From Marsupella aquatica (lineage: Eukaryota > Plantae > Marchantiophyta): a stretch of DNA of 64,000 nucleotides. Positions 34,042 through 64,000 of the stretch are shown in pieces (position 1 is the first letter of the stretch; each line of letters starts with the position of its first letter). A model generated the notes under the pieces. It saw nothing but the letters and a program-made list of their open reading frames with translations, did no database searches and was not told the origin of the DNA. Location of the stretch: positions 1 to 64,000 of the forward strand of contig OZ316894.1 of the NCBI GenBank assembly GCA_973895155.1, given 5' to 3'. The translations under genes were made by a program, and so were the position numbers.

Positions 34042-34536
34042 TTAGGTTTTCTCTTCTGACCATGTTGTCATTATTATAACAAAAATTAACAATCTTTATT
34101 TAGTCCAATTTTAACTCACAAATTTCCAACCATACTTTAATAACCTATAATTAATTTTTATAGATAATTTTTGGTTACATGCATGAATGATCTTAGTGTA
34201 CACATGATATATGACATTGAAATCTACAATTTATTATGTAACCCTAAGGATTATCATTGCAATGACAATAATTCTTTTGAATCCTTTGTATTTTATCTCA
34301 TTCGTATCCTTGTTTGAAATGGTGTTGCAGAGTTCCTTTGGCTCTTCATGTCAACATAGAATCAAGGTGTAGGGTGAGCAATTGTAGTAGTGGATCAGAT
34401 CTCTGCGTGGGCTCACGAACCTGAAGGTAGGGCTGGTGTCCATCCTATACACAGTGACACTTCCAATTCATTCCAATTACAGCAAATATCTTTCCAGCAT
34501 GTCAACTAAATTGCAATGTCTTATTGATTTGTAGGC

Positions 34537-35613: not shown

Positions 35614-35727
35614 AACATTTGTACAATATTGAAGCCAGACCCAAGAAAAGAAGTGACAACTGCTTTCGACAACATTTGTACAATATTGAAGCCAGACCCA
35701 AGAAAAGAAGTGACAACTGCTTTCGAC
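35614..35727 (+). repeat. 57-bp exact tandem duplication in the upstream exon of the second dioxygenase gene
   Basis: AACATTTGTACAATATTGAAGCCAGACCCAAGAAAAGAAGTGACAACTGCTTTCGAC x2. Confidence 0.9.
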
Positions 35728-35922
35728 AAATCAGTACTTTGGGAAGGTGAGTACCTAAACATCAAATTTATTTCTTTTTGTCCTCCTAAATCTTAAATGG
35801 TTCATAAATCCAATGACAAAAGTTACTTACGGCATTTTGGTACTCAGATCTTAAATGGTTCGTGTACTATTTGACCGGAATTGTAATTTTTACTAAATAA
35901 ATTATTTGTTCTTACATGGCAG

Positions 35923-39954: not shown

Positions 39955-42363
39955 CTATCTACTCAACAACCCTTGAGTGACAACGTCCGGCCACGAAGGA
40001 GGAGTAGGTAACCTTACTAGTCTCCTAAGTGATTTATACCCTTGAGCAGAAGAGTTCATAGCCTTATTCCGTATCAACTGTTCTCGTAGCTTAACAAGCT
40101 CTTTCTCGTACTTATGCGGAACAACATACCCTTCATGGCAGACCCAAACAGAGTATTGGTATGGCCAAGGAAACTCTGGAGTTATTGGCGGAAAAGGAGC
40201 TTCAGCACGTCGGAGGACATATACCCAACACCAAATTTCATATTCCGAAAATTTATATCTTCTACCCTTATCAATGGGAGGAATAGCCTTACCCGGCTTA
40301 TAAGTGGGAATCAACATTCGAATACTCGGTAGATACGTACCAGGTAAAATCTGTTGTTGTTGATGTATACTCTCCATTTCCAGATGTCCGAAAGCTATCT
40401 GAAAATCATTCTTCTCCCACTTATGAATTGAAGCAAGGTTAGGTATAGGAATTAGGGATGGTAGTACCACTGTGTGCCGAAGTTTGGGAGGTACTCTGAT
40501 AATACGAGGATCTTCGTCTTCCTCTCCATCACTTGGAGCTCCTTTCCAACGAAAAATAATGTATGGGTTTGAAGAAGGTATCACCGACTCCTTAGTAGGC
40601 CAACGTGATAGTACAACAGGAGATGAAGATGCAGGAGGTGGAGAAGAATTCCCCATTGTCGTGTTGATGGGCTTCAGCTGCTCAAAATCTGGTGAATTTG
40701 CTTCATGAAAGATCTGTTGATTTCTTACACGACGCAACCTTTTCCCAGGTCTTCGAGTATATGTCACTTGAAATTGCTCCGTAATAAGTGAACTCTCATC
40801 TCCAAGTGATATCCGAGTACCCTTATCTTTGCTTGAATCCAGTAAGATAGAAGCTGATGCAGAGCTAAATGCCAAATCAGGTGTTCCAGACAAAGGTATG
40901 GGTGGAGATACACTCTTGGTCTCAGGTAGCCCTAAATTGCTTGAAGGTCCAAGAGATGGAGTGGTTTGTAGACTGTGTTGAGACTCAAGTAATCTCTCTT
41001 CTGGAAGGTAAGCTGGAGAAACCCAATCAATAGATGGGTGTGGAGGAGGCCCTTTTCTTGCCAATGCTTCTGCTAACTCCTCAGACATAATCAGCGCAAC
41101 TGTTATTCTGGTTTCAGGGGTCGGCCACATAGGAAATGGCATGACAAAATTAGGTGAAGTTGGTTGTCCAGCTACTCCTTCTACATCTACTATTTTGTCC
41201 TCTGAATCAGCCTTAAACAACTTTACAAGCTCCCGGCATGATACCGCCGGAGGTTCCATTGATTGTTGTACAAGAGGAACCACATCTAGGTTTGGGGAGG
41301 GACTACGAGAATCTTCCAAATTATACTCCTGTAAAGCTTTTAAAGCATTATTACTCACTTCCATGGGTGGTGAAGCAGGGTTCTGTGAAGTTTTATCATA
41401 CCCATCCGCTGCAGTAGTATATTGTTGAGGAGGTTCTCCTGGTAAGCTTTCTTCATCCACATCCATCCTGTCTTCATCATTCGCTCTGAAAGCAAAATTG
41501 TCCTGATCAAGATCTTGATCCTCTGATGGGTGGGAAAGAATTGGCTCGTCTCTCCCGCCAACTGGTTCTCTTGTCTCTTTCAGTCTCCGAACTTCATTTA
41601 CCAGCTCAGATTCTTCGCAAGTGAGTAGTTTGCATAACGCCACCAGTGTTGAACTGGATCGGACTTCTCGTACTTCCGGCAACTCATTTGCTTCACAGGT
41701 AGATGCGCTCCAATGGGTACGATAGAAGACTTTCTCTGAAAGGAGCAGACATTTATGCTTGTGATAAATGTGAGCTAGATAGGGAGTCAAGTTGGTAAAT
41801 CTTAACTTTCCAGCTTGCAACCTGCTACAAAAGTTCTTTACCTGGGTATGAATTACCCTATATAAGATCTTCGTCCAATTGATGGTCTGCTTCTGTTCTA
41901 ATGAAGAGATAACGGTGGCAGCAAAAGAAAGAGTAATACGTGTCTGACTCTCTGGATAGAAAATTGGTGACAGAAATCGAAAAACATGCTGCAAAGAGGT
42001 AACTAAACAGTCCGTGGTTACCCAATCATTTCGCCTCTTAAAGGATTCAGGAGCAAAGAAAGACTCTATATAAGCTCGGGGCTCTCCATCAATCTTCTGC
42101 AAATCCTCGCCCGTTGTCGGCGTCGAGTAGACTCCCGCTATGAGCGCTTCAGTCCAAACACTTGGATGCGAGCGGACACCGATTCCTTCCTCAGCGTCCC
42201 ACACACCTTGGTCGATGAGGCTGAACTCGCACATCCTCCAAGGGAAACGAAGTAATTTCTTCAAGCCCATCAATGCAAGATTCGTCCTCAATTGTCGGCG
42301 GTCCACCATATTCGACGGGATAATTGCGAGTATTGGTCGCGTCGTAAGTTTGGACTCCACCAT
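39955..42363 (-). CDS. Gypsy accessory ORF (plant-mobile/transposon-protein-like N-terminus plus Pro/Ser-rich tail)
   Basis: RSHPSVWTEALIAGVY...DC...VFRFLSPIFYPE...ITLSFAATV...INW..LTPYLAHIY resembles extra ORFs of bryophyte gypsy elements. Lies between integrase and LTR. ORF track starts at TTG 42432; first ATG is 42363. Confidence 0.65.
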   Translation of the reverse strand: MVESKLTTRPILAIIPSNMVDRRQLRTNLALMGLKKLLRFPWRMCEFSLIDQGVWDAEEGIGVRSHPSVWTEALIAGVYSTPTTGEDLQKIDGEPRAYIESFFAPESFKRRNDWVTTDCLVTSLQHVFRFLSPIFYPESQTRITLSFAATVISSLEQKQTINWTKILYRVIHTQVKNFCSRLQAGKLRFTNLTPYLAHIYHKHKCLLLSEKVFYRTHWSASTCEANELPEVREVRSSSTLVALCKLLTCEESELVNEVRRLKETREPVGGRDEPILSHPSEDQDLDQDNFAFRANDEDRMDVDEESLPGEPPQQYTTAADGYDKTSQNPASPPMEVSNNALKALQEYNLEDSRSPSPNLDVVPLVQQSMEPPAVSCRELVKLFKADSEDKIVDVEGVAGQPTSPNFVMPFPMWPTPETRITVALIMSEELAEALARKGPPPHPSIDWVSPAYLPEERLLESQHSLQTTPSLGPSSNLGLPETKSVSPPIPLSGTPDLAFSSASASILLDSSKDKGTRISLGDESSLITEQFQVTYTRRPGKRLRRVRNQQIFHEANSPDFEQLKPINTTMGNSSPPPASSSPVVLSRWPTKESVIPSSNPYIIFRWKGAPSDGEEDEDPRIIRVPPKLRHTVVLPSLIPIPNLASIHKWEKNDFQIAFGHLEMESIHQQQQILPGTYLPSIRMLIPTYKPGKAIPPIDKGRRYKFSEYEIWCWVYVLRRAEAPFPPITPEFPWPYQYSVWVCHEGYVVPHKYEKELVKLREQLIRNKAMNSSAQGYKSLRRLVRLPTPPSWPDVVTQGLLSR

Positions 42364-42603
42364 CGCATCAATCGTAAAGGACACTTCTCTTGCCGTTCCT
42401 AGAAGTGGACGCTTCTCGTAGCGTCCCGTCAAGACTAAGTTTTAGGGTGGACGCTTCTCTCAGCGTCCAGTGCAAAAACTAAAATTCCGAACACTTGTGA
42501 AGGGGGAGGGAATGCTGATTCTAATAAAGTACAAACTACCTACCGCCCTCCACTGAAACTATGACCTGTCCCAGGTGAAACACTAAATAGGAGACTCATG
42601 ATA

Positions 42604-43920
42604 TCACTTAACCCAGAATCCATTGATTCGGGTGTCAAGTGGGTGACCGTCTAAGGTAGTCAAGGAAACCGAACCGTTAGCCCAGATTTGGGTAACTCGA
42701 TAAGGACCAATCCAATGGGTATGGAGTTTCCCAGGAAATAACATATAACGGGAATCAAAGACTAATGCTAAATCACCAACATCTAAATTCACGACTCACA
42801 GCTTTTGATCATAAACAAGCTTACGCTTGTTCTGAATTGTAGCTGTATGGTCTAACGCTAAAAGTCTAACTTCTTCTAATTTGACAATATCAAAAAACCT
42901 ATGTGGGAGACTAGCCGCTGGAGAGAGACGGTTGGATACCAAGAGTCATTCTGTTGGGAAGGAGAATTCAATAGGAATGATACTGTCCAGGCCATAAGTC
43001 AGGTAGAAGGGAGTGTGAAGGGTTGTAATTTTCTTGGCAGTACGGTAAGCCCATAATGCAGAATGTAACTTCACATCCCAGTCTGTCTTGTGAGACTCTA
43101 CTATCTTATTCAGGATCTTGCCCACAATGCCATTAGCTCTTTCCGTTAAGCCATTAGCTCTGGGGTTGTAAGGAGTAGTTTTGCGATGCTTGATAAGATA
43201 TGTGTTAGTAATTAACTCAATAGTTGAGTTAAGAAAATGCAAACCCCTATCGCTTACCAACTCCAAAGGACACCCGAACCGAGTAATAATGTGCTCAAAG
43301 AGAAATGCAGCCGCTGTTGTAGCATCATTCTTGCGAGTGGCTTTAGCCTCCACCCATTTGGTGGCATAATCAGTGGCCAGAATAATGTATTTACTTTGGC
43401 TTTTTCGAGCTGCTGGTGAAATTGGGCCAATAAAATCAATACCCCATTTCTCAAATGGTGTCAAAGGCAGGATGGGCGTAAGAGGCCATTTGGAACTAGC
43501 AGTGGGTTTCCCTATTCTTTGACAGGGGTCACACGTCTTAATAAAGTTGTAAGTATCTCTATGCATGGTAGGCCACCAGTACCCAGCATCCAAAATTTTC
43601 TTTACAGTAGTATTGACAGCATAATGGCCACGTGTTTCTCCATAATGTAAAGCTTCAATTACTTGTGGGAGTTCCCTGTTCTCCAGACATCGTCGCATCT
43701 TCTGATCAGGACCTTGTTTAAACAAAGTGCCCTGAAGGATAGTATAAGGTCCCACCTTATGTGCAAAAACAACTCGTTCTTCCGCATTAAGGCCTTCAGG
43801 AAAACTACCATGAATCAACATGTGCACAATATCGAAATACGGTGAAGACTATCCTTCAATGTGCCACAAATGCTCATCTGGGAATTCATCAGAAAGATTA
43901 TGCTGATTCTCTGGCCCAGG
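42604..43920 (-). mobile_element. Ty3/gypsy (non-chromovirus) integrase, 5'-truncated, with premature stops
   Basis: HHCC (H..GHYA..YWWPTM..CDPCQR), DDE core (WGIDFIGP, SDRG, NGLTER), GPY motif (HWIGPYRV). No RT/RNaseH upstream. Confidence 0.92.
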
Positions 43921-44531
43921 TAAGATGCACGGGCATTGGGCAGGGTGAATCTTGTCAGAAGTTCACATTTGTTAGACTAGAACCATTGGGATGCACAAGC
44001 TTTGAGGTCTCCTAAGCAATCACCAGTGCCTTTGATTTTGTCCCTAAACTAAGCAAAGTTCTCTTGTAGCATGTTAAGGGGAGCCCTCTACCTCTAAACA
44101 ATGAGATCCTAAACTAATTTCACTTGAGACATCTCTAGGTACGTAAATAGACAAACACTCATCAGGGAGGTCCAATTCTCAATTTCAGAGACAGTAGACA
44201 TAGAAGTAGGCCCTATGGAGATAGATGAAATCAATAGAACTGAGAAACTAGTAGGGAGCAGGAAAACTACTCATACACAAATAGTCGCTTCCAAGTTGAA
44301 ATTCCAAGTTTTAGAATAGAAAGAAAAGTGACTCTTCTATGGTAATGATGGATAGAAACCAAACAGAGATAAATAATAAGAAAAAAAACAACTAATGCAA
44401 AGATAAATTGAATTTAGGGTGAAATGAATACAATGGGCATCATCATATATACGGGCATATATATCTCACAGCTTTGTTCATTAGAATCCCCTGGGAACTC
44501 CACATGTAGAGATTTTGACTTTGATTCTTAT

Positions 44532-47500
44532 CTAACTGTAATTGTAATCAGTAAACATATCAAAGTGAATTCGCTCCGAGGTCGTGTTGTCCCTTTGATC
44601 AAGTGCAGCATATCGAGCTTCCCGGTCTTCATCTACTTGCTCTTGTCTTGCATGACACTGAGCCCATCTTCTCTTACTCATGTCATTCCTAAATGCCATT
44701 TGTCTCTCCTCTCTCTGTCCGGGGGTTTCCTCGACCATAATACCTTCCTCATTGTACAGTTTACACACACCAGGTCCTCGCTTGTCTGAAAGTTGTAATT
44801 CATCATCAATGTCCCCTTCTTCTAGGGATTGAGTAATGAGGTAGGACTTACTGACACCTGCAGCACTTCCCCATCTTAACATAGGCAGCTCACCTTTCAG
44901 AAACCCAGCTGCCACCATCAAATTGTACATCCTAGCAGCCAAAGGCCTTGCTCGACTAAATAATTTCCACAAATCTAGACCACCATCCTCCATCTCTCCA
45001 GTAACTGAGATGCGGACATCTGCTTTCTTGCCTGACCTTCCCACAACTTCGTATAATGTTCTTGTGAAGCAGTACCATTTGAAATACCGAAGATCCTTGA
45101 GCATGTTGTTGTATGTTTCAATGTGATGGACACTCCACAACCATTTCTCGATCTGCTCCAAAAAACTTATCTGCTGATTTGTCCTGTAACTAGGTGTCAT
45201 TAGTATCCGGATACTTGGATGGTGCTGCCAGATAGAAAAGTAAGTGGGGGTCGCTTCGTACATAACAGCTATTCCATCCTGTCCTTCTATTTGATCTCCC
45301 TCTTGCACTTGGTAATCCTGTGGTGGATCATGATATCCCCAAAGCAAAGCGGGACCAAAGTACTTCCCAATATTATAATTATACACACCTAGCTCTAACC
45401 GTGTAATAACTACTTCCGTGGGAGTCACTGCTTCCCAATAACTACTTTTCTCCAAGTGAACCAAAGATACATCTTCGGGGTTAAAGGGGTATACATCATT
45501 TCTAAAGTAACCCCCTTGACGAGCCACCACCGCTGGGTCACGCCTCAATTCATAAAAGAACCTCATTGCCAAGTGACTAAGCTCAGGTGCAATTGGTAGA
45601 TTGAAACTCATCCAATCATCAGATACTACTATGTCAGAGGTGAAAAATGGGTTGAATGCGACAGTAACCCCGTCCCTCTCCATCTTCTTCCACTGGGCAG
45701 CCTCCAAAAATGTGATGAGTCGGGGAAGTGTATACTTCCCACAATTGATCCGTACTTCCAGAGCAGCCCACGTTTTCAATATCAAGGGCAACAACTCATA
45801 TAACTTACTATAAACATCTAGACAACATTTTCTCTGGTTATCCCTCTGTGCTAATCCCTCATGAACCATATTAGCCATTGCTTTAAGTGCAATAAAAGTT
45901 TCATTTTGAGGATGCTCCCTTTCTAATTCCGACAACATGAATTGAGCTATTCGACTGTTAGCCCGACCTCCTAATCTATAAGACAAATCCTCAGGTAATT
46001 GTACATTAATATGTCCAGACCACTCAAAAAAAGGCAGCATGAATCTAATCCTTATAGGGACTTCATCCCAAATCTGATCCCAATCTCCAGGTCTGATATC
46101 CCTTTTATTTACCTCTGCACTGGCCAAAATTATCCGAAGGGTTTCTAGTCCGAGGGCTTCATCAACCTCAATCGGATGCCAACCATCACTCTGCTCTCCA
46201 GACATTGTGGTCCAGTGGTTGATGCTGATCTTTTTCAGGATCTCAACTCGTTGTTTGTTTATTGGGTCTTTCAAAGCCCCATCCAATAACTTGGTGGCTT
46301 TCTTTGCTTCATCTCTCAACTCTTGCACTCGAAGTTCCCAAGCATCATAAGCATGTCGTGGTATCCGAACATCCTTAGAATTACATTGCACCAACTCTCG
46401 CTGGGCTATTTCACCCAACCACTTCTTTCTCTCCTTCTCTCTTTGCTTGGCACTTAATTCTAATGTTCGGATATACTCCACCCTCTCCAGGTTTTGCTGC
46501 TCCAACTTTTGTAACGCTTCAAAAGTCAGTGTGAGCTGCTGGGTAGTTTCTTTTAGCGACTTCTCTATCACTGTTATCATCTGAGAGGTATGACCTGCAC
46601 ATTGAGAGTGAGTATAGCGCACTTTAGCAAATTCATCTTCTAATTGCAGCCACTTCTCCTTTTCTTCTTCATATTGGCCTGAAGCCTCCTTGCTCGCTTT
46701 TTGGGCCTCCTTCAATTGTGCATTCAACTCTCTGCCCTCTTCTTCAAAGGCAGCTACATACCGACTCAATTCTTCTGCCTTTGTGGTATTCTGAGCGTGT
46801 TGCTTCTCTGCTTCCTTCCGGACAGTTGTCACTTCCTCTATCAGCAAAGTAATCCTTGCCTCTCTTTCTTGGGACTTCATCTCCTGCTCATGCAACATTT
46901 GTTCTCGTATCTCCACCTTCTCATTGAGGAGTCTCACCATCTCCTTGTTTTCCTTCAGCAAACTCTCCAACTTCTCAATCCTCTCTTGGAGCTTAAGGTT
47001 GGTGTTGGCGCTTCTGAACAGATCTTCTTCCTGCTGCTTTGCCTTTTCTCTCTCTCTTACCCCAGTTTCTGCTTCGAGTGCACAAATGTGGGCCAACCCG
47101 CACACTTCCTTGGCTTGATGTAACCACAAACGCTTGTCACTTCCTACAGGGAAGGGTCGATTAATAAACTTCATCCTCTGCTCAAAGGAGGTGAGCTCAG
47201 ACAGAACAACATTTGATAACAACTCTGTCAACACTGGTTGATGGTATACATAATCAGATTGGGCAGTGGATGTCATAGCTTCTTCTTCCTCTTCGACCGG
47301 GATTATCACTCTCCTTTTCTTTCTTTTCAAGGACTTAACACACACATTCCCCTTTATCCTCAATGTACGTAATCCTTGTGCGCCTTCTTCATCAGAATTG
47401 TCCACTTCATCTGCACTGCTTGAGACCAGGCCCGAGACCAGGGATCCCTTTGGGGCATAGAGTCTCGGATTATCTTCTTCCCCATCCTCGCTCTCCGACT

Positions 47501-48271
47501 CCTCCTTTTCTTCTTCCTCCTGGTTTGCCTCCTCTCGCTCCTCTGAATCGCTGTCCTGCAAGGAGATTATTGTGACCGCGGTTGTGATCCTATCGGCAGT
47601 GAGGGCGTGGTCCATCACTACGCTTAATACATATGCACAAATTGACGGAAACAATGGTAGCCCCTTCCTGGTTATAACACTTGCAAGGTTGCGCTTCCAT
47701 ATCAGCAATGGGTGAAGAGTTCCATCTAATACTCTCTTGGCAACTGATAGTTGCTCTGGCGTTACATAATGGTACCCACTCTTGAGGATTACCCATTTAG
47801 TAAAGAACTCCACATACTTGCGGACCTCTTGGTTTGTCATAACGCGCCATATTGGACCTTCTTCTCATGCTGGAGCTCTCCTCCTTGTTTTAGGAAGGCA
47901 CTCATCTCTCTTCCCGTAAGTGCCTCAATTGGATAGTCAGCTGGTAGGCTGTCTGGGGCAAAAATCCCAAACAAAGTCGCTAATTCCTTGTTGGGGATGC
48001 GGTAGGCTTGTGCTCTGTATGTGATAAACACTCCAGTATCTGCAAAATTGACATCCACAATATCTTTGTAAAGCTGACAAGCACGATCAATTGATACAAA
48101 CCTATCAATTCGGACAAGCCCATAGCATCGAGCCCTTTCAAATATCTCTCTGTATTCTTCAATGAAAGCCACCTCAGAGATTGAGTTCCTCAATCTTTCT
48201 TCTGGAGTTGATCGAGGTTGTTTATTTTTGGCTGGAGGGACCTCTACTCGGGTTTGATTTGGAGATGTCAT
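44532..48271 (-). CDS. Retroelement-type accessory protein: 144-aa and 1102-aa ORFs overlapping by ATGA (probable frameshifted single gene) with acidic tract and long coiled coil
   Basis: Long intronless ORFs adjacent to gypsy integrase; E/K/Q-rich heptads; no catalytic motif recognised. Confidence 0.55.
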
Positions 48272-50737
48272 TGTGAAATCTTTACAAATGAAGGTAGTTC
48301 AGTCAACTTATCCACTTCGCAAACATTCGGAACATCCTTCCTTCCTAAAGATTTCAATGGGGCGCTCGCACTGTGAAAACTCTAATATACTTGGCAAACA
48401 TGTTGGTCTCATAGATTGAAGTGGTTTCAATGATGGCACGGTCAATTGAATAGCGGACGGTGGTCTTAGTGTCTTAGTGCCTTTCCTTTTATGGTGTTTG
48501 AATCCTCTTCCTCCTACAACTTGGAGCAATAGCTTCCCTCGTTCCACTTCCTTTTGTATCCAAACAATGATGACTCTTCTTCTCTTGAATGGAGACTGAG
48601 GGTACAATCCCTCTTGTGATGATATTCGCTTGAATGGAGAGGGTACAATCCTGACACTGTTCATTTTCTTGTCGGCCACCCTTTTGTCCTATATCTCATG
48701 AAGTTGGGTACACCCCACACAACATACAAACCGTTAAAAGTTTCTGACAATTAACCTAGTTGTACTTAGACAATACTTTAATATATAAATCATGACTTGT
48801 TAATCATTAATTATGCTTTATTATCTCTCTTTGCAACACTATTAGGGGGTCACACATTACACACAACTTATAAAAAAGGAGATTGAACTAAAAAAGAACA
48901 AACTATATGACCAAAGGATAGACTCTCAATCTAGGGGATCTTTCCGCAAGCCACCTAATCTAGAATAGTTTTCATTACTTAGATAGTTTGCACTACTATA
49001 TATTATTCACAACTATATTATATCTCAAATATATGTTTCTTGAAGAAGTGTGTTATAATTCCACTCCTCTCAATTAGTTGTTTATTTTAATATATGTACT
49101 AGAAAGCTTAATTTCTACTCAATTAGTAGTTTAATGTATGCTAGTAGAACATTATGGACCATATTAGACTCTCAAAACTCAAGCTAAAAGCCCTTATTTT
49201 CCTGGTCATATATTATGCAGAAGATTGCAAAAATCACATCACTTTGGATGAGGTAATTAATTTCTCCTATATTTTCACTAAAATTTGTAAAATTATCTTA
49301 TCATAACAATCTACGATACCATCAAAATTTTGACCATAAATAATAGCCTTTGACAACTTGAGTTAGAGTTAATATTACATACATTAATTATACTCAAACA
49401 AGGCCTAAAAAATGTAACTAGGGGGCCCACGAACTAATTCCAAATACTCTTTTAGCTCCAATGCACTATCTTTAAAATTTGAAATATTATGGTATCTCCT
49501 CAAAACAACAAGCTGTAAGACTCTAATGCATATACTGAAATCTCTTGTTTAGACTCTATTAGGGCATCAAAGCCCAGCCGTAACTCAGTTATAGCTTAGG
49601 ACATAAATCACTTTTATGGCCTGGAAGTAACTTCTTATGGGGTACCTACAAAGGTGCCCCGCAAGTCTCATACATCATAAAGTTTTATGTCCGTAGGGTG
49701 AAGACCATATGTTTTAAGAGAAGTCGCCCCGGCACTAGTCACTAGTGCAAAGCCTGCCCGGCACAAGTGGCCCCTACGATGATCCCAGTGATGGAATGAG
49801 GGGTGAACTGAGTGTATTTTCCCCACTCACGAATTTGGGCAGCTCCTCTGAAATCCTTGATGAAATCCATCTGGGCATCACACTTAGGTCCACATTCATC
49901 AATATCGTTGTTGTTTGTCCTGAATTCGTAGTCAATGCACTATTGGGGTGAGGAAGAGATTCCCTCCAATCTTATTTAATGATGAGAGCCGCATAGGTGA
50001 CGGTGAGCAAGCTCACCGACATGGCTGCTACGTCGAGCTGTGAATTGTGGTGATGGATGGTTGTCTCCCAAAATTGTTCTACAGGCACTCTCGAGCAAGG
50101 AATTCTTCTAATTGTTTGCTACTTGTTCTTCCATATTACATGAATTTAGTTTTGACAAAGAACAAACAGTTCTGAAACCGAGATTCTACGGGGAATAGAA
50201 ATTGTTTGCTCTTGGATGTCCTTTGCTCATTTTAACAGACTTTCAAACAATGGATTTGATTTTAGACGTATGTTGGTGACAAATCCCCACATGTAACAAT
50301 CTATTGCACATCACATGAAACTAAAATGCTAATCTCTGTGCAAGCGCAATTGAACAACTACTGTTTTTTACTCATCTCTACTTCAATGTTGGTGTCTCTA
50401 TTAGCTTTGAGTGCTTAATTTCAGAGTCTCTCTTAGCTTTGAGTGCAGAATTGTGACTACGCCTGTCGAAATAGTTTCGAGGCGCTCAATTGTCTCAGAA
50501 GTTATTAAATTCCTAGGTTCAACATAGTGGCAAAAGTTACAACGATGCGCCGTCCAAATTTCTGTTGTTCTGATTCTGGCCAACGCTTTCTATTCTGGAT
50601 TTGATTGCCACTACATTTACTTTGTTGCTAAGACCAAAAATCTCTCTTGAAGACTCATTGACAGCCTACGATGGTGATGACACCTGCAACTTTGTCACCA
50701 TCCTTAAGATTCTTTTCTACCCCATAACTAGTTCTTA

Positions 50738-51518: not shown

Positions 51519-54500
51519 TTAATCCTTTAAATCTTTTGTTTGAAGGTTTCGCCACTTGTCTTTCAGATCAATCTGTGTCAAAGTCAATAAAACATGATAG
51601 ATGAGCATGCAATTTGTCTTGTGTGCAAGGGTAAATACAGTAATACAAAAAGCAGGATATAACCATAGAAGACTTACTTCAGACCGGTCAATGAAGTGTG
51701 CACCCTCGGCAGCAAGAATTCGACTCCACTTGCCTGGTCCAAACCTGAAATTAACCTTGGCTTAGAAAACCTCTTGTTCTTAGAGAAAAACACCAATTAA
51801 TACCAGCTAGGTAAGATATTACGTCAATGCATTTTGATTGATAAGTCATAGGTTCACTACTTGCCTACGGACTGCCTGTTTGAGACAATTTGTTTCCTCT
51901 TTAGACCACCTTTTAGTTGCCCTACGAACACGTATTAGACCATTGGGGCCTTCTTTCATGACTGCCCGGGTGATCAATTTGGAATTTTGTATTCCAATAC
52001 ACCCTTGATGCAGCCTCAACCTCTTAGATGACGGGCTGGACGTATCCTCCTTCCCTGTGCCCTGCAAAGACATCCAATTTGTAATACTCCAGCAAGGATT
52101 GCAAACATTACAAAATACAGTACATCTTCCATACTGTACAAGATAGATGTTGTTGTCACCAATGATTAAAAACAAGAAGTTTCCTACGGACCACCTCACC
52201 TTGGCACTCGAAGTTGCTAGATTGCCCTCCTCTGCTTTGTCTTTGGATTGGAACGGGGTGATTAGGGACCGAGAAGGAGGATTTAGCAAATCTATAATTC
52301 GTTTTCTCCCTAAGTTCTTCCCCATATCACAAATGCCTTTGTAATTCTCACTCTGTGGGGCTGGAAGCTCAACTAATCTCTGTTCTTCCGGATGAATTAG
52401 GTGTTGGACTTCATTTGATGATTGTTGCATTTTGCTAGTAGTAATTCCTCTGTTGAGCATATTAACCTCTGTGCTCACCTCTGTCACAAAAAAAACACCA
52501 CATTAGAGACTTCAATTCTCCATCAACAGCACATACAAAGACCTAGGAGTCTGAAACTACTCTATACACTATCAATCTGAACTAATCAATGCTAGTTCTA
52601 GTGCAATTTTGGTCAAACTGTAAGACTACATATGAGTTGAACTATGACATTGGTGAGCACTACATACCATACACTGGTTGGGAGGATGCCTGCTTTGGCA
52701 ACAATACAGGCGCCATGATCTGCTGGTTGGCCACCTCCAAAGGAGCTCCTTCATTCTCATCTATCAAATTCTCTTTACCTGTTCCAATCTCCACCCGCCT
52801 TTTTCTATAGTGATTCAATTTAGACTGCAAATACAACCATCCAATTAACGGAAATGATATTTCTCCACCACAATATGTATATTCACAATGACTTGCAGCA
52901 AACAACAAATCAGTCCCACCTTTTACCAAATCTGATAGCTAGTGAGAGAAGACAAGGCCCAAACATTGTTAAAACAATGCATCTGTCTCCTAGCCTGTGA
53001 GTGCGGGACAAAACCAATGGAAAAATCCCAAAAATTTTGTGCACCACTCCATCGAGCGGTGCAAATTAAACCAACTATTTAATAAGACATTTAAGAAAAC
53101 AATCCTTTGGAGGAGGAGGGGAAGGGAGAGAATCATGAGCTAAGTTACCCAAGGTTGATCCAAATAAATACCTGAAGCTCAACTCGGACTTCCTCGGCAA
53201 CACTTTCATACTTGTCTTTCAAAGTATCCACATCCCTACGAACTGCGGCCAAGGTGGTCACCATCATTTCATTCCTCTGTAGGAGTAGCTCCAACTTGAC
53301 ACCTATTGTGTTGTTTGCCTCTACTTGCATCCTCAAGTTGGTCAGTATTGTTTCGTTCCTCTCTGTCTGTAACTCCAAGGTGGTTGTCATCTTCTCATTC
53401 CAGTCTCTCTGGCGCTCTTTCTCTATTTTCAACTCACCTACAACCTCCATCAAGCACAGGCATGATGTACAACAAGATCTGACTGTTTTTGAAGCTTCTG
53501 AAATGCTCAAGGGGAATACATTGTTTAGTGTGAATATGTCAGAGTGCTCCAGCAACTCCGTACCAGTTGTTGTCAACTCGATACCAAATTTTGTCTTCAA
53601 TTTTCCCTGTTCTCTATCCTCTGTTCCAGCCGTTGCTTCCGCTTCGCCCAATGTCTTCCCTGATATTTCATGTTCTTTACCCCCCGACAGAGGTTTTGTC
53701 TCTTGAAGACTCAATGTCTTCATGGACGTTGCATGATCTTCATGGATTATCCCAACCTTTGTCACCATCTCATTGTCACAAGCTCGATTGAACAAAGAAC
53801 CATCTTGGTGTCCGTTCACAAAAGAACCATCTTGCTGACCTTGCGGCTCTGCTCCACTAGTTGAGAATAGCCTGAGAAGTCCTCCACTGCTACATGGATC
53901 ACCCTCATGCACACTAGAAACAACAGTTCCTTTGGCATGTCCTGACATTGCATCATCGTCGTTCACAATTTGCAGATGCATTGTGAGATGTTTTTGTCCT
54001 GTGCAGTTCTCCTCCATCCCGTGGTTTTCCACTCCATGATGCTCCACACCCACTTGAGTAGATGTTTTCCAATGGAATACTTGTGGCCTTGGCAAAGACA
54101 CAATTGAAGGGGACTTCTCACTCAACAGAATTTGCAGATGGGATCCAAAATTGTAAGTGCAAGTCATGTTACCTTCGGAGATTTGTTTCCGGGCTCTGCA
54201 GAGGAGGTCGATCAGTCTCCCGCCAAGATATTCTCCCCAATTCTTCCTACTACTTGTTTCTTCAACTTGCTTTATCTGGCACAAAGACACATCGGCCTTG
54301 CTCCCCTTAAAGTGAAGAGCCCCCAATTGAAACTCTAGCCTCTCTCTGATTAGGGAATCTTTGCAATATTGCAATGAGTAAGAACCATTGCTGTTCCTTT
54401 TAATCCCTGCGAATGACCTTGGATTATATCGAACTGCTTTTTGCTCAAATGGCTCCCCTGACCCTTGCAACTTGAATGTCTTCTTGATAGAATCCAAACT

Positions 54501-54632
54501 CAAGTCTATTCTTCCCCCACAAACCCATGTTTCAGATTGTTCACTGTCAAAGTTCCAGATGAAATCTATCATGTCAGACTTAGAATGACTTAGTGTCCCA
54601 ACGAACTCCCAAAACAAAATCTGCAAGCCCAT
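51519..54632 (-). CDS. Spliced TRF-like (telobox) Myb protein with N-terminal retroelement-accessory-like domain and coiled coil
   Basis: Exons 54632-53172, 52824-52668, 52480-52200, 52061-51865 (GC donor), 51744-51678 and 51572-51519 join in frame. They give ...RWSKEETNCLKQAVRRFGPGKWSRILAAEGAHFIDRSEIDLKDKWRNLQ, where LKDKWRNL is the telobox. Confidence 0.8.
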
Positions 54633-56498: not shown

Positions 56499-56930
56499 CA
56501 TGTACAAATATTGAGGCGAGACCAAGGAAAGAACTGTACACTCCTTGGGACAAATCAATAGTAGATTTATGAAGGTGAGTACCTTAACATCAAAATTCCC
56601 CCTTTCTTCCCACCTAGTACATGTAAAATATTCATAAATCTAATGATAAAAATTACAACTTACAACTGCATTTCGGTACTCAGATCTGAAATGGTTCGTG
56701 TACTATTTGACCGGAATTATAATTTTTACTGAATTAGAATTAAAATCTTGAAAAAATTTATGTGGATTTGTTTGCTACAGTGTGGGAAGATCTAAAAAAA
56801 TTGACACCATAAAATTGAAGTTTACACTTTATTGGATTCTTTATTATGAAATATTCTTGAACTTTTTGTTAGAAAAGTTCTTAAACTAAAGTCCTCAAGG
56901 TTTTGAAGGACACTGTTTTTGAATGGCTAT
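56499..56930 (+). pseudogene. Second truncated, decayed 5' fragment of the dioxygenase gene
   Basis: Highly similar to ~9066-9500 (TGTACAAATATTGAGGCGAGACCAAGGAAAGAACTGTACACTCCTTGGGAC...) and homologous to 35620-36160. Confidence 0.8.
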
Positions 56931-56991
56931 CAAAGATGTCACCTTTTGGATGTGGTTACAATTATCCCTATTTTCATTGCTCCCCGTGTGA

Positions 56992-57405
56992 ATGAGGGTA
57001 CTCTTATCTCCTGAGGGTACCCTTGTGCTTGAGGGTACTCTTATCAGTGAGGGTACTCTTATCAGCGAGGGTACTCTTATCAATGGGTACGCTTATCAAT
57101 AATGGTACTTTGATCAATAAGGGTACCCTTATCAATGAGGATACTCTTATCTCCTGAGGGTACCCTTGCGTATGAGGGTACTCTTATCAATGAGGGTACT
57201 CTTATATCAGCAAGAGTACTCTTATCAATGAGGATACTCTTATATCAGCAAGAGTACTCTTATCAATTAATGGGTACACTTATCAACAATGGTACTTTGA
57301 TAATGAGGGTACCCTTATCAGTGAGGGTATTCTTATCTCCTAAGGGTACCCTTGTGTTGGGCCTTGTGCATGAGGGTACTCTTATTAATGAGGGTAATTT
57401 TATTA
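56992..57405. repeat. Second array of quasi-palindromic 18-bp units
   Basis: Same consensus as 9555-9952; contains the perfect palindrome ATAAGGGTACCCTTAT at ~57117-57132. Confidence 0.9.
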
Positions 57406-57853
57406 GTCATAGCAAGCAACAAAGCAGGCAGGGAACCCCATGAAGGCGCCCCGCACCGGCAGAAGGACTCCGAACATACTGAAAAGACCCTAAACCTCAC
57501 TAGACCAACATTTTGGGTATTGCATGGACAAATACTAGCCGAAGTACATGCCTAAATTTACCTGCTCTGTATTAGTTCCCTAAACCAGGGGTGATTTTTT
57601 TCATCAAATCCATACATTGTATCCTAGTTTTTTTCACACATGATGTAAACCTACATAATGTGAAAGTGGGAGAGAAGACTTATGATTTGATACAATCTTC
57701 ATTTAACTATAGTACAATATTCACTAATCATCAGTATATATGGTAAGCTCCAATTCCTCCATATAGTATGTAGACAAAAATTGAAGCAATCGATGAAATA
57801 ATTAACAATTTCATTACACTTGATATTAATTACAGTGCTTCCTTACTTCTTCC

Positions 57854-60800
57854 TCACCAGTACTCAGGATATTTTGTTTTCACAATAGCCGCAGCAAACA
57901 AAACAAAGTTATTCACTACTTTCCCTGTACCTATCTGCATGAACCAAGTAGCAAGTTCTTCATCACTTTTCTCTCGAATTTCCGGAAATTCCTTGAACAA
58001 TTCTGTTTGTATCCAAGAAACCCTCCAGCCTTGCCACACAAAATGTCGAAGACGCTCGCCTGTTCTATCATTGCACTGATCACCATATGGTCCTTTATGA
58101 ATACACATTCCAGTGACAACTACAGTATGTTGAAAGTGACACTTAAAACAAGTCCATGCATTTTGAGGGAATGTGTTCTTGCAGGTCCGGGCCTGGTGAG
58201 ATCCTAGACATCTAAAACACAATGACCGCAATATAGGACAGTTGACAGCATTGTGTACTTCTTGCTCCCTTGATTCAGGACACTGACAAATTAAGCATTG
58301 ACTTCCATCACCCGCAAAAGTTCTGATGATACGAAGATCCCTTTTATCACTCTCAAAAGATTGGCTGTGTGCCATAGCCCTTAGCCTTGCAACCACAGGC
58401 TCTGCTTCATGTACCCCTTGTATAATTGGGGTCATCGGCAAGGTGTTTCCTTGTCGTCTTGGCATGGGAGTGGCTGGGGGTTGCGTAGGAGTTTCATATG
58501 TTGACTCATCCGAACCCCCTCTTCCTGGAATTCCCATTGAAGATGATGCTACCTCATGTGGTGGAATTGAGGCTGTTCTACAAGGAATGTCTTGTGTGAA
58601 CACCTCAAAGTCGACTATGTCCACACCTGGGCTGCACATCACAGATGCTTGGGAACACAAGTCACACAAACTAGAGAATGGAATAAGATGACATACTTGA
58701 GGTTTTCCATCGACCTGGTCATGGAGCCCAAACCGACGACATGATGTCTTGTTCTCTATCCATTTGTGTGAAGCCGCTGTGGTTGAATCAGTGCGTTCGG
58801 CCATCTTGCGATAAGCAAGGTTGGTCACCACATAACTCATCGCCGGGAGCCCATCACGTCCACCTCGTCCAGATTCTTGGTGGAAGTGTTCCAGAGACCT
58901 GAAACTACCACGATGAATGACAAGCTTAACCCATTTATAATTGTATCCACTACTAATCACTCCGGTGGCCACCATGATCTTACAAGCACCTGACGTCCAA
59001 GAACTCAATGAAGCCCTCTTCACCGCTATGTCCAGATGCGCATGCACATACACACATGACATTTCTTTCCCTTGGAGGATTCTTGTAGTTGATTCCACCT
59101 CCTCGCGGGTTAGACAAAATACTAGGGCCCTCTCTTCTGGCAAAGAATATGCTCTCCAATCACGCAGAAGACTCACTATTTCTTGATCCATCATGTTATG
59201 GCCAACCTCAACAACGGCATACCTGATGTTGGGTCTCACAGTAGGACAACGAATCCACACCATCTCTGTAGCTAACATCCGCTCAATATCAACTTGATTC
59301 TTGGGTGCTAGGGATGCAGTTAACCCTATGATTTGGCAATTAATTTCCATGAGGCCAACCAACTTTTTCATTGACGGTCGAAAGTCAGATAACAGGAGGT
59401 GCACCTCGTCGTAGACAATGGAATGCAAGGAACCATTGCATTTCAACTGCTTTGCCAAGATAATGAATAGTTTGGATTCTGCAGCAATCTCCACAGCCAC
59501 AAAAATGATTGAAGGAGGTCTTGCCACTTCGACTGCACCATCCTTATACACAACACAACTAATATTTGCTTGTTTGCATTCCTCTACGTGGCCCTCTACT
59601 AGGATAGTGAGTGGAACGATCACAATCACCGTCCTATTCTGTCCCATGGTGGAAGGTGCCATGAACACCAATGATTTTCCAGACCCAGTGGGTAGTATGG
59701 CAACAAAGTCCACCACATTATCTATGGATAGAGCAACTGCTGTTGCTTGTTCCGACGATTTCCACTGTTGATGACCAAGCCTTCTTAAGGCTTGACAAGC
59801 TCCAGTAGTCCTATTGAGACAAACTTGTAGCAGGGGATCACTTTCTCCACTTGCCAATAATGTCTGATGGATGTTTGAGTGGAAAACTGTAAACCGCCTC
59901 CTTTTGGGAATTTGCCTCACCTCATATTCAACACCTCCAACGGGTCCCAAAAAGTCAAAAGGTGCAGTCGACATTACCTCGGGCCTCTGTGACCCACCGA
60001 GGCCAACCAACTTGTGCCACAATCGTGACACCAATACACACCCTCTTAAAATATGTCCATCCATGCCTCTAGGATCCTTTGTACTACGAGCATAGTGATG
60101 GCCGACCGTAGCTGTTTCATGACCACCTGCTACATCCACAAGGTCTTCTTGTAAATGGGCCTTACAAGCTCGTATATTCTCACTCCAATGTGCTGCCACA
60201 TGCCGGTACTTTGCAATCCCAAATGGAATGCCACAGTGCTTTTGGAAAGCATCTAATACACTGGCAGAAAGGTCTACTCCCGTCAGCCTCTTGTCCATGG
60301 CCACAAACCAACAATCCAGGTACATTGCTGCAACTTCCGGACCCCACAAAATATTCGCCACGAAAGATTGTACTGGGCGAACTAGACATAACAATTTCAC
60401 AAATAGGTGGCTTTGATTGTCAGGAATGAACCGAGCAGTGAAGTTTATAGGTTTCCCAGCATTTGCACATTTGTGGTAGGATTGATAAACCATCAGCGTA
60501 TCAGATAACCAAATGAATGCTCTATCCCCAGTGGCAGTGTTGCGAATCAATAGGCTCGAGTATTCTTCCCCTCTTGCAGGTAATCCAGAACAGAAATGCA
60601 GAAGTAGGTTCAATAGCCTCTGTAGCTTGGAACATGCAACCATCCACCTGTGGAGTGCAGGAATGTTCCAAATAACTCCATTTACATTGTCCACTCGTAG
60701 GATGAAATGTGCCATCATCATAGTATTACTGAACATGTGGTTCAATAGATCCTTTCCATGTTGTTGGAACTCTGGATTTCGGGCGTCTATGAGAAAAGAA

Positions 60801-62812
60801 TAATGCACTTCGTCTGTCTGGACAGCATCATGAATGCAGCCCTTGGTACTCACCAAATTGAGTATCCATTCAGATTTGAGACCGAGAAGAACATCATGGT
60901 TGAGTGTTGTTGTCGCTTCTTCAACAATGGCACGGATCATATCCCTGAACGCATTCAATGTGATAATATCACCGTCAATTGAGCATGTTGTTTGTGTATC
61001 GTCCATGTGTATGAGATTTGGTCGAGCATGGGTGCCTCGATTAATTGTTTTTGCCAGTCGCATGTACTGCCGAACTTGAGTAATCGGCGTGTCCAATGCC
61101 ACATCGCTCACGTATTTCTCCAGGATGTTTACTTCATTCCCAGGTAGGCCACGTGGGTTTGGATGCCAAAGAGCTTGTGAGAGTTCCATCAGGATTGTAC
61201 ATCTTGCCCAGTAGTGAAGTATTGCCAATATTTTGGTGATTTTCCCAATTTTGCAAAATGCATACCCTGTGGATTGGGAACCCAGCCCGTCACTCTTTAG
61301 AGAGTGGAGGATAAAGAACCGAGTGAGCAAACAATCCGCCGGTGAACGAGCATACAACAGCTCCGGAATTTTTGGAGTCCAGAGAAGAAGTAGTACTCGA
61401 TGGATATTTGTGAGATCAATATCACCTTCTTCTGCAGGCCGCGCCTCACTTGGTTGGCCTAATTGTGCCAATAATTGTTGCAGGGCACCTTTTAGATCCG
61501 GCCTATCTGTGTATATAACACAATGTTGAGGCCGAGAATCATAAGTACAAGAACGAACGAGGCAAAGAAGAAGGGAAACCATTCCAGCACAGTATTGTGG
61601 AACAGTGTTTTTCTCTTGTAGTCCACCCAATCCCCTTGTGACATCGGCATTTGGAGTCGGCTTCATCACCATTCTTTGCACCCTATAATCTAAATTTCCA
61701 CTAAGAATATTTCTTGTGCATGTCATGTACGCACGGACCACAGTGCCCAAGTACGATAGTGAAGACCTAGGGTCGGCGGGCCTTGGGGGTTCCATCTCAG
61801 ATTGCACTTCAACAAATGGCACACCTTCAGGCATGAACTGGGATGCAATCTCATGCCACCTTGATACCCTTAGCCACGGCGACAATTCCCTCACTGGAGG
61901 TGCAAGATCTGTCTTTAATGACTGTAGATGAGCTTGAAAAACTTTTGCGACTGCACCTCTCGTACTCTGAGCTACTGCATCGTCCGCAAGGTACACATTG
62001 CCATGGTCCACTCCATAGAATTTGCGGCCGACTCCCTTGAAGAGGGCTTGCACTTGACATGGAGTAGCAATGTCCTTGAAACCAAGGTGGTTGTGTTTCA
62101 TACATCGGTGATTTGCCATCGTCCGCTGTGATCTACAAAAGAAGATACATCTCGAGCAAGAGAATCCCCAATGAATGAGGACGCCCGGAACTGGAGACAA
62201 CAATTCTGCAATTGGATTGATTGTGTATGGTAGTAGGGACGCATCATTTGTACGTGTGAACAACACACCCTGCAACAAAACCGACAATTGCTCTGGTGTT
62301 GGATTCGTGATTGAATTTTGTGTTGCAACTCTCACCCTGCCCATGTTCCTTCGATGACTTCCAACATGATGGATAATGCTACTTCCTTCCGTGTGCTGAA
62401 GGGCTATATGGCATTGCAAGCATACTAGAAGAACAAGGTTGTTGTGGTGAACAATGCAAAGCTTTGCATTTCTCAACATGTCTGGTGTTGCTAACAGGTC
62501 ATGATCTAGGATAGTGGTGGGGACTTGGTTGACAATTGGATCGTCTACATCCATGAACGGGTCAACTCCTACTGCTTCATTGTGTTTCCTTTTGTAGTGA
62601 AGACGTAAACTATCACTACGGGGATAGGACGAGGAACATGTGGCCACAGGGCAATGGAATCGACCATCCTCTTCTTTCTCAATGATCTGGGTTGTGCCAT
62701 TGTTGAGCTGCAATTGGTAAGTAGAACGGTGAACTGAGCGGGAATGGGAACTGCGAGAGTTTGCTGACTGAAATTCTTCCCCACACTGACTACATCCAAA
62801 TACTGTCACCAT
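57854..62812 (-). CDS. Fungal-type telomere-linked-helicase-like protein: C2H2 fingers, DUF3505-like Zn domain, tyrosine-recombinase-like domain, RecQ helicase and C-terminal Zn knuckles (1652 aa, intronless)
   Basis: CSQC..HSRSVH and CPVATC..HYKRKH; LVCLQC/CSRC..NH..KH/CQVQALF; SGLPARGEE..YRH..AGGH..HYA; ILPTGSGKS, DEVH, TAS, RPNIRY, QESGRGGRDG, CRR..L..CDLC. Confidence 0.85.
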   Translation of the reverse strand: MVTVFGCSQCGEEFQSANSRSSHSRSVHRSTYQLQLNNGTTQIIEKEEDGRFHCPVATCSSSYPRSDSLRLHYKRKHNEAVGVDPFMDVDDPIVNQVPTTILDHDLLATPDMLRNAKLCIVHHNNLVLLVCLQCHIALQHTEGSSIIHHVGSHRRNMGRVRVATQNSITNPTPEQLSVLLQGVLFTRTNDASLLPYTINPIAELLSPVPGVLIHWGFSCSRCIFFCRSQRTMANHRCMKHNHLGFKDIATPCQVQALFKGVGRKFYGVDHGNVYLADDAVAQSTRGAVAKVFQAHLQSLKTDLAPPVRELSPWLRVSRWHEIASQFMPEGVPFVEVQSEMEPPRPADPRSSLSYLGTVVRAYMTCTRNILSGNLDYRVQRMVMKPTPNADVTRGLGGLQEKNTVPQYCAGMVSLLLCLVRSCTYDSRPQHCVIYTDRPDLKGALQQLLAQLGQPSEARPAEEGDIDLTNIHRVLLLLWTPKIPELLYARSPADCLLTRFFILHSLKSDGLGSQSTGYAFCKIGKITKILAILHYWARCTILMELSQALWHPNPRGLPGNEVNILEKYVSDVALDTPITQVRQYMRLAKTINRGTHARPNLIHMDDTQTTCSIDGDIITLNAFRDMIRAIVEEATTTLNHDVLLGLKSEWILNLVSTKGCIHDAVQTDEVHYSFLIDARNPEFQQHGKDLLNHMFSNTMMMAHFILRVDNVNGVIWNIPALHRWMVACSKLQRLLNLLLHFCSGLPARGEEYSSLLIRNTATGDRAFIWLSDTLMVYQSYHKCANAGKPINFTARFIPDNQSHLFVKLLCLVRPVQSFVANILWGPEVAAMYLDCWFVAMDKRLTGVDLSASVLDAFQKHCGIPFGIAKYRHVAAHWSENIRACKAHLQEDLVDVAGGHETATVGHHYARSTKDPRGMDGHILRGCVLVSRLWHKLVGLGGSQRPEVMSTAPFDFLGPVGGVEYEVRQIPKRRRFTVFHSNIHQTLLASGESDPLLQVCLNRTTGACQALRRLGHQQWKSSEQATAVALSIDNVVDFVAILPTGSGKSLVFMAPSTMGQNRTVIVIVPLTILVEGHVEECKQANISCVVYKDGAVEVARPPSIIFVAVEIAAESKLFIILAKQLKCNGSLHSIVYDEVHLLLSDFRPSMKKLVGLMEINCQIIGLTASLAPKNQVDIERMLATEMVWIRCPTVRPNIRYAVVEVGHNMMDQEIVSLLRDWRAYSLPEERALVFCLTREEVESTTRILQGKEMSCVYVHAHLDIAVKRASLSSWTSGACKIMVATGVISSGYNYKWVKLVIHRGSFRSLEHFHQESGRGGRDGLPAMSYVVTNLAYRKMAERTDSTTAASHKWIENKTSCRRFGLHDQVDGKPQVCHLIPFSSLCDLCSQASVMCSPGVDIVDFEVFTQDIPCRTASIPPHEVASSSMGIPGRGGSDESTYETPTQPPATPMPRRQGNTLPMTPIIQGVHEAEPVVARLRAMAHSQSFESDKRDLRIIRTFAGDGSQCLICQCPESREQEVHNAVNCPILRSLCFRCLGSHQARTCKNTFPQNAWTCFKCHFQHTVVVTGMCIHKGPYGDQCNDRTGERLRHFVWQGWRVSWIQTELFKEFPEIREKSDEELATWFMQIGTGKVVNNFVLFAAAIVKTKYPEYW

Positions 62813-63228
62813 CCTGCATGAAAAACAACAAAATTAGCTGATGCCATATTTTGCTCTGAAATTATATAGAGCTCTTCACATCAGATTTTCCCGTGGAGCT
62901 CCACAATGGACTCTAAAGTCAATCTCAATTGGCCAACTATCGGACTAGTATTTTTCATTTTCCATTACCTATGTCCCAAGCTTGATCTGCACCATGAATG
63001 TGCAATCTAACCCAAAGCTTCACTGACATAGAAGTTGGTTGAGCATGTTCACACATTCAACGTACTTTGTGAGCACAGACACAAATTAAACGAATTCAAT
63101 CCGAATCTTCTCCAAAACCTGGTCAGTTGGATCATATTTTCACTATCTTGGGAAGTGAACTTGTACCATGCACTCTCTCGATGCCCTTGGGGCTAATAAT
63201 TACTCCAATGCCTCTAAAGCCACCAAAC

Positions 63229-63398
63229 TGTTGTAACCCAGGTTAAACCTACTTACCATAGTTCTACTTGCCTAACTAGAGTTCTACCTAACTCAGTTAG
63301 GATAACTGCCTCAGGGCAACGGCCTTCAAGCCGCATGTACTTATTCTTCTCCTTGGGAGTATACACGAGATCTTTTTCCATCTTGTCATGGTCCAACA
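63229..63398 (+). mobile_element. 5' LTR of a Ty1/copia (Bianca-type) element
   Basis: TGTTG...CAACA termini (170 bp) immediately followed by the PBS. Confidence 0.7.
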
Positions 63399-63412
63399 CG
63401 TTATCAGCACGA
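63399..63412 (+). promoter_or_regulatory. Primer-binding site CGTTATCAGCACGA (internal initiator tRNA-Met type)
   Basis: Motif characteristic of Bianca-lineage copia elements. Confidence 0.75.
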
Positions 63413-63747
63413 GTAGTGCTCTGGTTTTTTTCCTTAAATTTTTTTTCCTCCGCCCTTGAACGTCCAACGCGCACGCAATACACTCACCGCGTGAAGTTTT
63501 CAAGACTACGAACAGAGGCAAGGCGAGCGTGCAAGCAGCCGTGCACAACGCGATCGGACAATCAGACAAAGCGAGAGGCTGGAGTGCAGCAACCAACGCA
63601 AATTACAATCGACCACTCCAGCTAACACCTCCAATTATGAAAGCTCTTCACATTCCATTTATTCATGTCATCAATTTGTGAATTCATCAATCTAGACAAA
63701 TTGTATTTCCGCCACTGAAACGCATACTACATATAATCATAGTAATC

Positions 63748-64000
63748 ATGCCTCCGGCAACCATGGAAAAGTTATATTTCCAGCCATTAAGTATTGATGG
63801 CGCCAACTATCTTTCTTGGCAATTGGACATAGAGGCACACTTGACATCCAAAGACATTGCAGACACGATCACCTCCGACACAGGATCTACTTTACAGGAG
63901 CGAGCTCAAGCACTGATCTTAATCAGGCGACATTTGACTGAACCACTAAAGCTTCAATATCTAAACGAGCTCAACCCACGCCGATTGTGGGAAGCACTCC
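63748..64000 (+). CDS. Copia (Bianca-type) gag, N-terminal part (runs off the right edge)
   Basis: MPPATMEKLYFQPLSIDGANYLSWQLDIEAHL...ERAQALILIRRHL..PLKLQYL...P..LW matches Bianca gag (F..L.I.G.NYLSW.LD.E.HL...RAKAMIF.RHHL). Confidence 0.85.
   Translation, partial: MPPATMEKLYFQPLSIDGANYLSWQLDIEAHLTSKDIADTITSDTGSTLQERAQALILIRRHLTEPLKLQYLNELNPRRLWEAL

Follow-up and report, generated by a model that had tools for sequence, protein, structure and literature searches.

On balance, the gene described here is best read as an intact plant member of the telomere-linked helicase (TLH) family, in which zinc fingers, a tyrosine recombinase (YR) predicted to be complete and a RecQ helicase are joined, and as the likely engine of an undescribed, self-moving DNA element. 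It lies in a stretch of 64,000 nucleotides from Marsupella aquatica (contig OZ316894.1), which we call the window. The frame is open, the helicase motifs are present, the residues R-E-K-R-H-Y are invariant and the fusion is family-wide; the middle region is predicted to adopt a recombinase fold. All motifs pointed out by an earlier sequence-only reading fall within one ORF, with the following features in and around it.

57854..62812, minus strand: intronless ORF of 1652 aa, with the order C2H2/OrsD, tyrosine recombinase (core-binding, CB, plus catalytic, CAT), RecQ helicase, Cys-rich tail
62582..62794, minus strand: two N-terminal C2H2 zinc-finger motifs (aa 7-28, 54-77), by pattern match
62090..62449, minus strand: OrsD/DUF3505 domain, aa 122-241 (PF12013, E 6.7e-7)
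within 62090..62449, minus strand: two further C2H2 motifs inside OrsD (aa 131-153, 219-240), by pattern match
61028..61765, minus strand: predicted YR core-binding-like helical domain with insertions, ~aa 350-595 (model, pLDDT 91.3, and weak fold matches)
59996..61024, minus strand: predicted YR catalytic domain, ~aa 597-939, including the "TLH domain" region (model, pLDDT 90.5)
60563..60574, minus strand: box I, R747-x-x-E750 (alignment conservation)
60470..60472, minus strand: K781, after a predicted beta hairpin (conservation and model)
60203..60214, minus strand: A867-x-x-R870, the HxxR position (alignment)
60092..60121, minus strand: H898 and predicted nucleophile Y907 (conservation), 9 residues apart like H333/Y342 of lambda Int
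58655..59749, minus strand: RecQ-type SF2 helicase (aa 1022-1321) and RecQ-type Zn motif (aa 1358-1386), by Pfam and motifs
57857..58297, minus strand: C-terminal region rich in Cys and His, with a motif resembling a zinc knuckle, common to homologues (motif pattern and homologue comparison)
56501..57678, strand not assigned: high-copy repeat that adjoins the gene on its downstream side and contains an 18-nt tandem array (repeat comparison)
63229..64000, plus strand: start of a copia LTR retrotransposon, ~417 bp upstream of the ATG and outside the gene (weak gag matches)

Pfam recognised only OrsD/DUF3505 (122-241), DEAD (1022-1173) and Helicase_C (1224-1321) in the protein, and aa 242-1021 had no Pfam match. 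Walker A, DEVH, motif VI and the RecQ-type zinc motif were all intact, and the family helicase profile matched RECQL5, BLM and RecQ with E-values of about 1e-46, which identifies the helicase as RecQ-type.

The sequence-only reading had proposed an ordered set of R, K, RH, GH and Y upstream of the helicase, and the residues were found exactly where it had placed them: R747 at 60572-74, K781 at 60470-72, R870 at 60203-05, H898 at 60119-21 and Y907 at 60092-94. A phmmer search with aa 290-950 (E<=0.001) gave 1352 representatives (50% identity clusters), the best 150 of which were aligned by HMM; they were chosen by likeness to the whole region and not to the catalytic columns, and the counts refer to rows having a residue in the column. 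R747 was kept in 138/140, E750 in 141/141, K781 in 138/139, R870 in 118/119, H898 in 111/114 and Y907 in 112/113 of these homologues. These six residues were thus 97-100% invariant. For comparison, the median column conservation in the same alignment was 32%, and only 12 of 372 columns reached at least 90%. The R-K-R-H-Y spacing was 34/89/28/9, vs 23/76/22/9 in lambda Int, whose box I (R212/D215) is comparable to the RxxE of the window protein. The pattern R..E-K-R[HQ]-[GA]H-x8-Y, which was composed after seeing the protein, matched none of 5000 shuffled sequences. The first His of HxxR is indeed replaced by alanine, with A867 at that position. Since this column was variable among the best 150 of the 1352 homologues (the commonest residue, N, reached 24%), the missing His is a family trait. 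E750 and the likely core-binding domain at ~aa 350-595 are additions to the earlier reading.

An AlphaFold2 model of aa 560-950 had a pLDDT of 90.5 and a pTM of 0.89, the segment around Y907 being less certain (pLDDT 56). When the model was compared with 48,161 PDB representatives, the best match was XerA (Z 11.6, rmsd 3.0, 172 residues aligned). Ranks 1 to 29 (Z 11.6 to 5.0) were occupied by XerA/D/H, integrases, Cre, Flp, topoisomerase IB, Ndc10, SroF and protelomerases, and the first unrelated structure appeared at Z 4.6; Ndc10 and SroF are proteins that we take to have the YR fold. A second model, of aa 285-605, had a pLDDT of 91.3, and N-terminal domains of YR-fold proteins made up 10 of its 12 top matches, with Z of only 3.8-5.2, the range of common helical arrangements. 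Together, the models suggest that a core-binding domain likely precedes the CAT domain.

Searches other than the structural comparison returned much less. Foldseek against the PDB gave nothing at E<=0.001, with YRs at ranks 1, 3, 4, 6, 8 and 10, and against BFVD it likewise gave nothing at that cut-off, the best match being a Feldmannia virus protein (E 6.6e-3), followed by integrases. The fold expected by the sequence-only reading was therefore recovered by structural comparison, but not by Foldseek at this threshold. No YR family was present among the Pfam (25 of 45) and PHROG families reported for 71 members; phmmer of the region against the PDB found no YR, and hhalign to lambda Int gave only 6%. 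With the Calypogeia homologue as query, an Atlas feature search ranked unnamed eukaryotic clusters highest and also gave an integrase cluster, at 0.87, which we treat as a lead only. Because the fold and the residues are clear while the sequence searches were blank, the domain is cryptic by sequence. Fold and conservation support the fusion of a YR domain to a RecQ helicase; the fusion gene is real and its assignment as a recombinase-RecQ protein well supported, with the YR part and its activity predicted.

By sequence comparison, the predicted YR-fold region is the "TLH domain" of the fungal telomere-linked helicases. TLH proteins have been defined by C2H2 motifs, a ~250-residue TLH domain before the helicase and RecQ motifs in the available text of 10.1101/2024.02.27.582403. 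The window protein has four C2H2 motifs that fit the published patterns, an intact RecQ helicase and, at aa 690-945, the ~250-aa conserved region just upstream of the helicase, the comparison being made through homologue P0098 rather than the reference TLH1. P0098 is named "ATP-dependent DNA helicase tlh1" and aligns over aa 305-938 (E 6e-27). Magnaporthe TLH1, fission-yeast tlh1/2, Fusarium TLHcr and the Monosiga protein have the same order of parts (C2H2, TLH domain, RecQ) and a similar ORF length. However, the window gene is in a plant, is interstitial and is not adjoined by telomere repeats: the 64 kb contain no telomere array, and they carry an SMC exon, P450 exons, a Ty3 integrase and the start of a copia element. 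With host genes present and no array, the gene is TLH-like by sequence and not telomere-linked.

In many fungi, TLH genes lie at most chromosome ends and aid the recovery of telomerase-less fission yeast, and the parts available of both sources describe their function as elusive (10.1101/2024.02.27.582403; PMC1635262). The Fusarium units are single or arrayed with telomere repeats on both sides, with the function left open in the accessible text of the first. The consulted part of PMC1635262 gives the function as unknown and reports no members outside fungi, the choanoflagellate being a later addition, and the word "recombinase" is absent from it. In the accessible portions of both sources, the TLH domain has no assigned function and is not called a recombinase. 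A link between TLH and recombinases was likewise absent from the portions consulted of PMC5576322, PMC3627910, PMC13465315, PMC9940879, PMC10799480 and 10.1101/2025.11.13.688278. No paper connecting TLH or DUF3505 helicases with a recombinase was found in a search that covered mainly open-access articles and the main texts of preprints.

Family members with names came from Calypogeia, Sphagnum and several mushrooms, and most relatives were fungal. Among the 37 long homologues scanned, the helicase was present in 32 and OrsD in 15, and a Walker A pattern was found in 47 of 54 homologues with at least 200 residues after the YR part. The closest relative is a protein of the liverwort Calypogeia (P0001, 49-52% identity), whose N-terminus is missing and whose Walker A is altered. 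The two were grouped with a support of 99 in a FastTree tree in which few rows carry names and the deep forks are weakly supported; a fungus-to-plant transfer could not be demonstrated from this tree. Searches of viral contigs and prokaryote genomes with short patterns of low sensitivity gave no confirmed relatives. The metagenome loci L001 and L002 hold an apparently intron-bearing relative on a probably fungal contig. At L002:7821-12985 it has the full architecture, apparent short introns and a contig GC of 0.36, with a presumably Crinkler-like ORF in the flank. Over the YR part, its identity to the plant protein is 48%, which offers a lead towards transfer between fungi and bryophytes.

Scanning of metagenomes yielded 70 loci, some of which are one place seen twice. 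Most belong to one family, and up to 60 cross-match over the YR part. Locus L006 encodes P0170, which groups at support 100 with a cluster containing Sphagnum-named proteins, so these copies are likely from moss. The sequence they share is restricted to the gene and its near flanks and drops off within a few kb. In-frame stops were present in 67 of the 70 loci, and the catalytic arginines were often Cys or His. The median dN/dS between copies over aa 690-940 was 0.59 and 0.51 at dS <0.2 and 0.33, 0.25 and 0.18 above it, from 1541 non-independent pairs. Judged from these sequences, dozens of dispersed moss-type copies show past purifying selection followed by decay, as expected of a mobile element. 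Such a pattern is left by an element that depended on its own protein as it spread and whose copies later decayed where they lay. Three different 3' tails occur in the flanks. Copies L004, L027 and L039/L040 lose similarity at a near-identical point ~820 nt past the coding end, which is a possible right end. The 400-750 bp tandem duplications upstream of L016, L043 and L048 recall the helicase-associated repeats of Magnaporthe. An 820-bp repeat frequent inside moss copies was rejected as part of the element, as its TG...CA ends give it the look of a solo LTR.

Neither a second copy of the gene within the window nor long terminal repeats, ends or target sites near it were found, the upstream side being interrupted by copia, and no empty site was observed. 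Contigs from X1 and X5 diverge from the window at 63229 and 63212, and copia is absent from both; since it is missing from the organism A contig, its insertion is likely recent and polymorphic. The high-copy repeat downstream of the gene also occurs at 9062-9952; both copies share their start with 35670-36154 and carry 18-nt tandem arrays. Two related ORFs at 23061-24509 and 35887-37286 (+), one of them preceded by a PHD-finger ORF at 34528-35217 (+), have an HxD...H pattern and no Pfam match, and presumably resemble TET/JBP dioxygenases. Genes of this type travel on DNA transposons in fungi, and the repeat has the appearance of a non-autonomous element derived from the TET-like unit. A Ty3-type element (39955-48298, minus strand; integrase 42946-43848) has two accessory ORFs (828 and 1110 aa) without Pfam match. 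Co-oriented with the YR-RecQ gene is a spliced gene at 51519-54632 (-) with a GC-AG intron and a C-terminal Myb domain (GPGKW, LKDKWRNL), which we take to be of the telomere-repeat-binding type; its 495-aa ORF had two homologues only, and its split exons had no significant database match.

Read depth was like that of a single-copy gene. A single contig of run X1 (organism A) spanned 57758-63229 at a depth of 107, vs about 107-170 in neighbouring non-repeat bins, and in run X5 (organism B, a second species) one contig covered most of the gene at a depth of 68, vs 50-63 for its neighbours. X2 and X3, with uneven depths within the gene, were left out, and X6 consisted of short low-depth pieces. 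Since the depths in X1 and X5 are like those of the flanks, there is no sign of current spread. The X5 copy differed at 161 of 4551 nt (3.5%), vs 5-11% in six neighbouring pieces. All five indels in the ORF part were of 3 nt, covering all 15 gap letters and keeping the frame, and the four ORF substitutions listed among the 161 differences were synonymous. CpG depletion was not distinguishing (0.52 for the ORF vs 0.39-0.67 in neighbours). The window gene is thus intact and apparently under selection, without visible spreading; this copy is quiet, judging by its single-copy depth, but looks competent.

These properties would also suit a domesticated copy, that is, an immobile, element-derived gene fixed as a single-copy host gene that would cut, rejoin and unwind host DNA in repair, at repeats or at chromosome ends. 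The single-copy-like depth, the low divergence and the preserved frame favour it, as does the presence of the neighbouring Myb gene in X5, at 89-95% identity and a similar depth. However, no X5 contig joins the gene to the Myb gene or any other neighbour, and similarity with species B ends at 57676, ~180 bp downstream; three loose-end 30-mers from the reads were absent from the window (best 18, 19 and 22 of 30). Furthermore, the defects of the Calypogeia protein and the decay of the moss copies argue against a fixed host function, and purifying selection is also seen in low-copy active elements. We hold domestication of this copy to be the chief alternative, though rather unlikely.

Comparison with known systems bears on what the protein might do. 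The Helitron RepHel also joins a strand-transfer enzyme to a helicase, but it combines HUH Rep with PIF1 (SF1), as opposed to YR with RecQ (SF2) here. A YR cleaves through its tyrosine, holds the 3' end as 3'-phosphotyrosine and frees a 5'-OH, so that, unlike with HUH Rep, no 3'-OH is available as a rolling-circle primer. The Helitron likeness suggested by the sequence-only reading is thus architectural only and does not extend to the chemistry. Academ elements likewise pair a transposase with RecQ, with DDE rather than YR chemistry (PMC3627910, available part). Cryptons, including the DUF3504 CryptonA/Glomhopper group, are small eukaryotic YR elements with R-K-R-H-Y and known domestication (PMC13465315, available part). 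The window protein differs from them in the absence of the HxxR His and in its fused RecQ, OrsD and zinc fingers; DUF3504 was found neither in it by Pfam nor among the 25 of 45 families listed for the 71 members, and no short terminal direct repeats of the Crypton type were found at the gene, whose upstream side copia interrupts. Starship captains (DUF3435) share the CB and CAT architecture, and clades 1 and 3 have YxxR, without the HxxR His (PMC11162782, available part). The His is therefore not required for the YR superfamily. No match to the captain domain (PF11917) was found in the window protein at E<=0.1, nor was DUF3435 among the 25 of 45 Pfam families listed for the 71 members, and, in contrast to Starships, the family has a fused helicase and occurs in bryophytes and several fungal phyla. 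The fusion gene is not filed under Crypton, Starship or Helitron, the Crypton comparison being made without a reference profile.

Topoisomerase IB and the protelomerases TelA/TelK share the catalytic fold at lower scores than XerA (Z 7-9 and 5.0 vs 11.6), and both lack the HxxR His; to our knowledge, neither family has a fused RecQ. A topoisomerase-IB-like swivel fused to RecQ would nick and reseal a single DNA strand to relieve torsion in front of the helicase or dissolve junctions, comparable to the Sgs1-Top3 pairing, and the gene would be spread by host recombination. Topoisomerase IB chains with Z of 9.0, 8.6, 7.8 and 7.3 and the missing His are consistent with such an enzyme. However, Xer and integrase chains rank above them, box I has the RxxE arrangement seen in lambda Int, and the N-terminal part matches YR core-binding domains (Z <=5.2), which makes a swivel unlikely.

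The sequence-only reading had also considered a telomere-resolvase-like enzyme, which would make or open hairpin ends or resolve fused telomeres. The chromosome-end position of fungal relatives, the shared protelomerase fold and the adjoining Myb gene of the type noted above favour it. However, protelomerases are the lowest-ranked branch of the fold matches (ranks 28-29), this copy lies away from any telomere among SMC and P450 host genes, and telomere repeats were nearly absent from the moss loci (a short doublet in 2/70), and we regard this weakened proposal as very improbable. Just as improbable is a dead recombinase fold that only binds DNA, like Ndc10 and QRICH1 among the fold matches, or a fungal contaminant joined into the assembly, as the mostly fungal relatives might suggest, because no columns are more invariant than those of the catalytic residues, domesticated DUF3504 proteins lose theirs (PMC13465315, available part), the gene depth equals that of the plant flanks in two runs and the nearest relative is a liverwort protein.

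We return to the reading of the gene as the engine of a self-moving element. Since the middle region is predicted to be a tyrosine recombinase and retains the catalytic residues, the TLH-type family likely moves or copies itself. In YRs, four subunits exchange strands via a Holliday junction. The zinc fingers and the CB domain would bind sites at the ends of the unit, and Y907 would attack the backbone to form the 3'-phosphotyrosine. By paired strand exchanges via a Holliday junction, the unit would then leave as a circle and integrate again, a route proposed for Cryptons and Starships, and the fused RecQ would open the duplex or migrate the junction and may assist copying of the circle. In fungi, telomere repeats would be the target sites and chromosome-end arrays the outcome; in bryophytes the copies are dispersed.

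More tentatively, TLH genes may form an unrecognised superfamily of eukaryotic DNA elements in fungi, a choanoflagellate and bryophytes, in which one recombinase-RecQ polypeptide excises, copies and reinserts its unit. This plant lineage might then keep a working copy under selection beside a gene of the telomere-binding Myb type, be it an element with cargo or the first YR-helicase to be domesticated in a land plant; we consider this wider proposal possible rather than probable.

If the TLH domain carries a recombinase active site, the elusive function of TLH could be put to a concrete test with a single tyrosine mutant. If correct, a YR-plus-RecQ class would be added to the eukaryotic DNA transposons, and the TLH family would extend to land plants. 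Most of the copies seen are decayed, which makes an intact one, kept in frame in two species, directly usable for biochemistry. As a candidate live element or domesticated recombinase, the Marsupella copy makes the mobility of the family testable.
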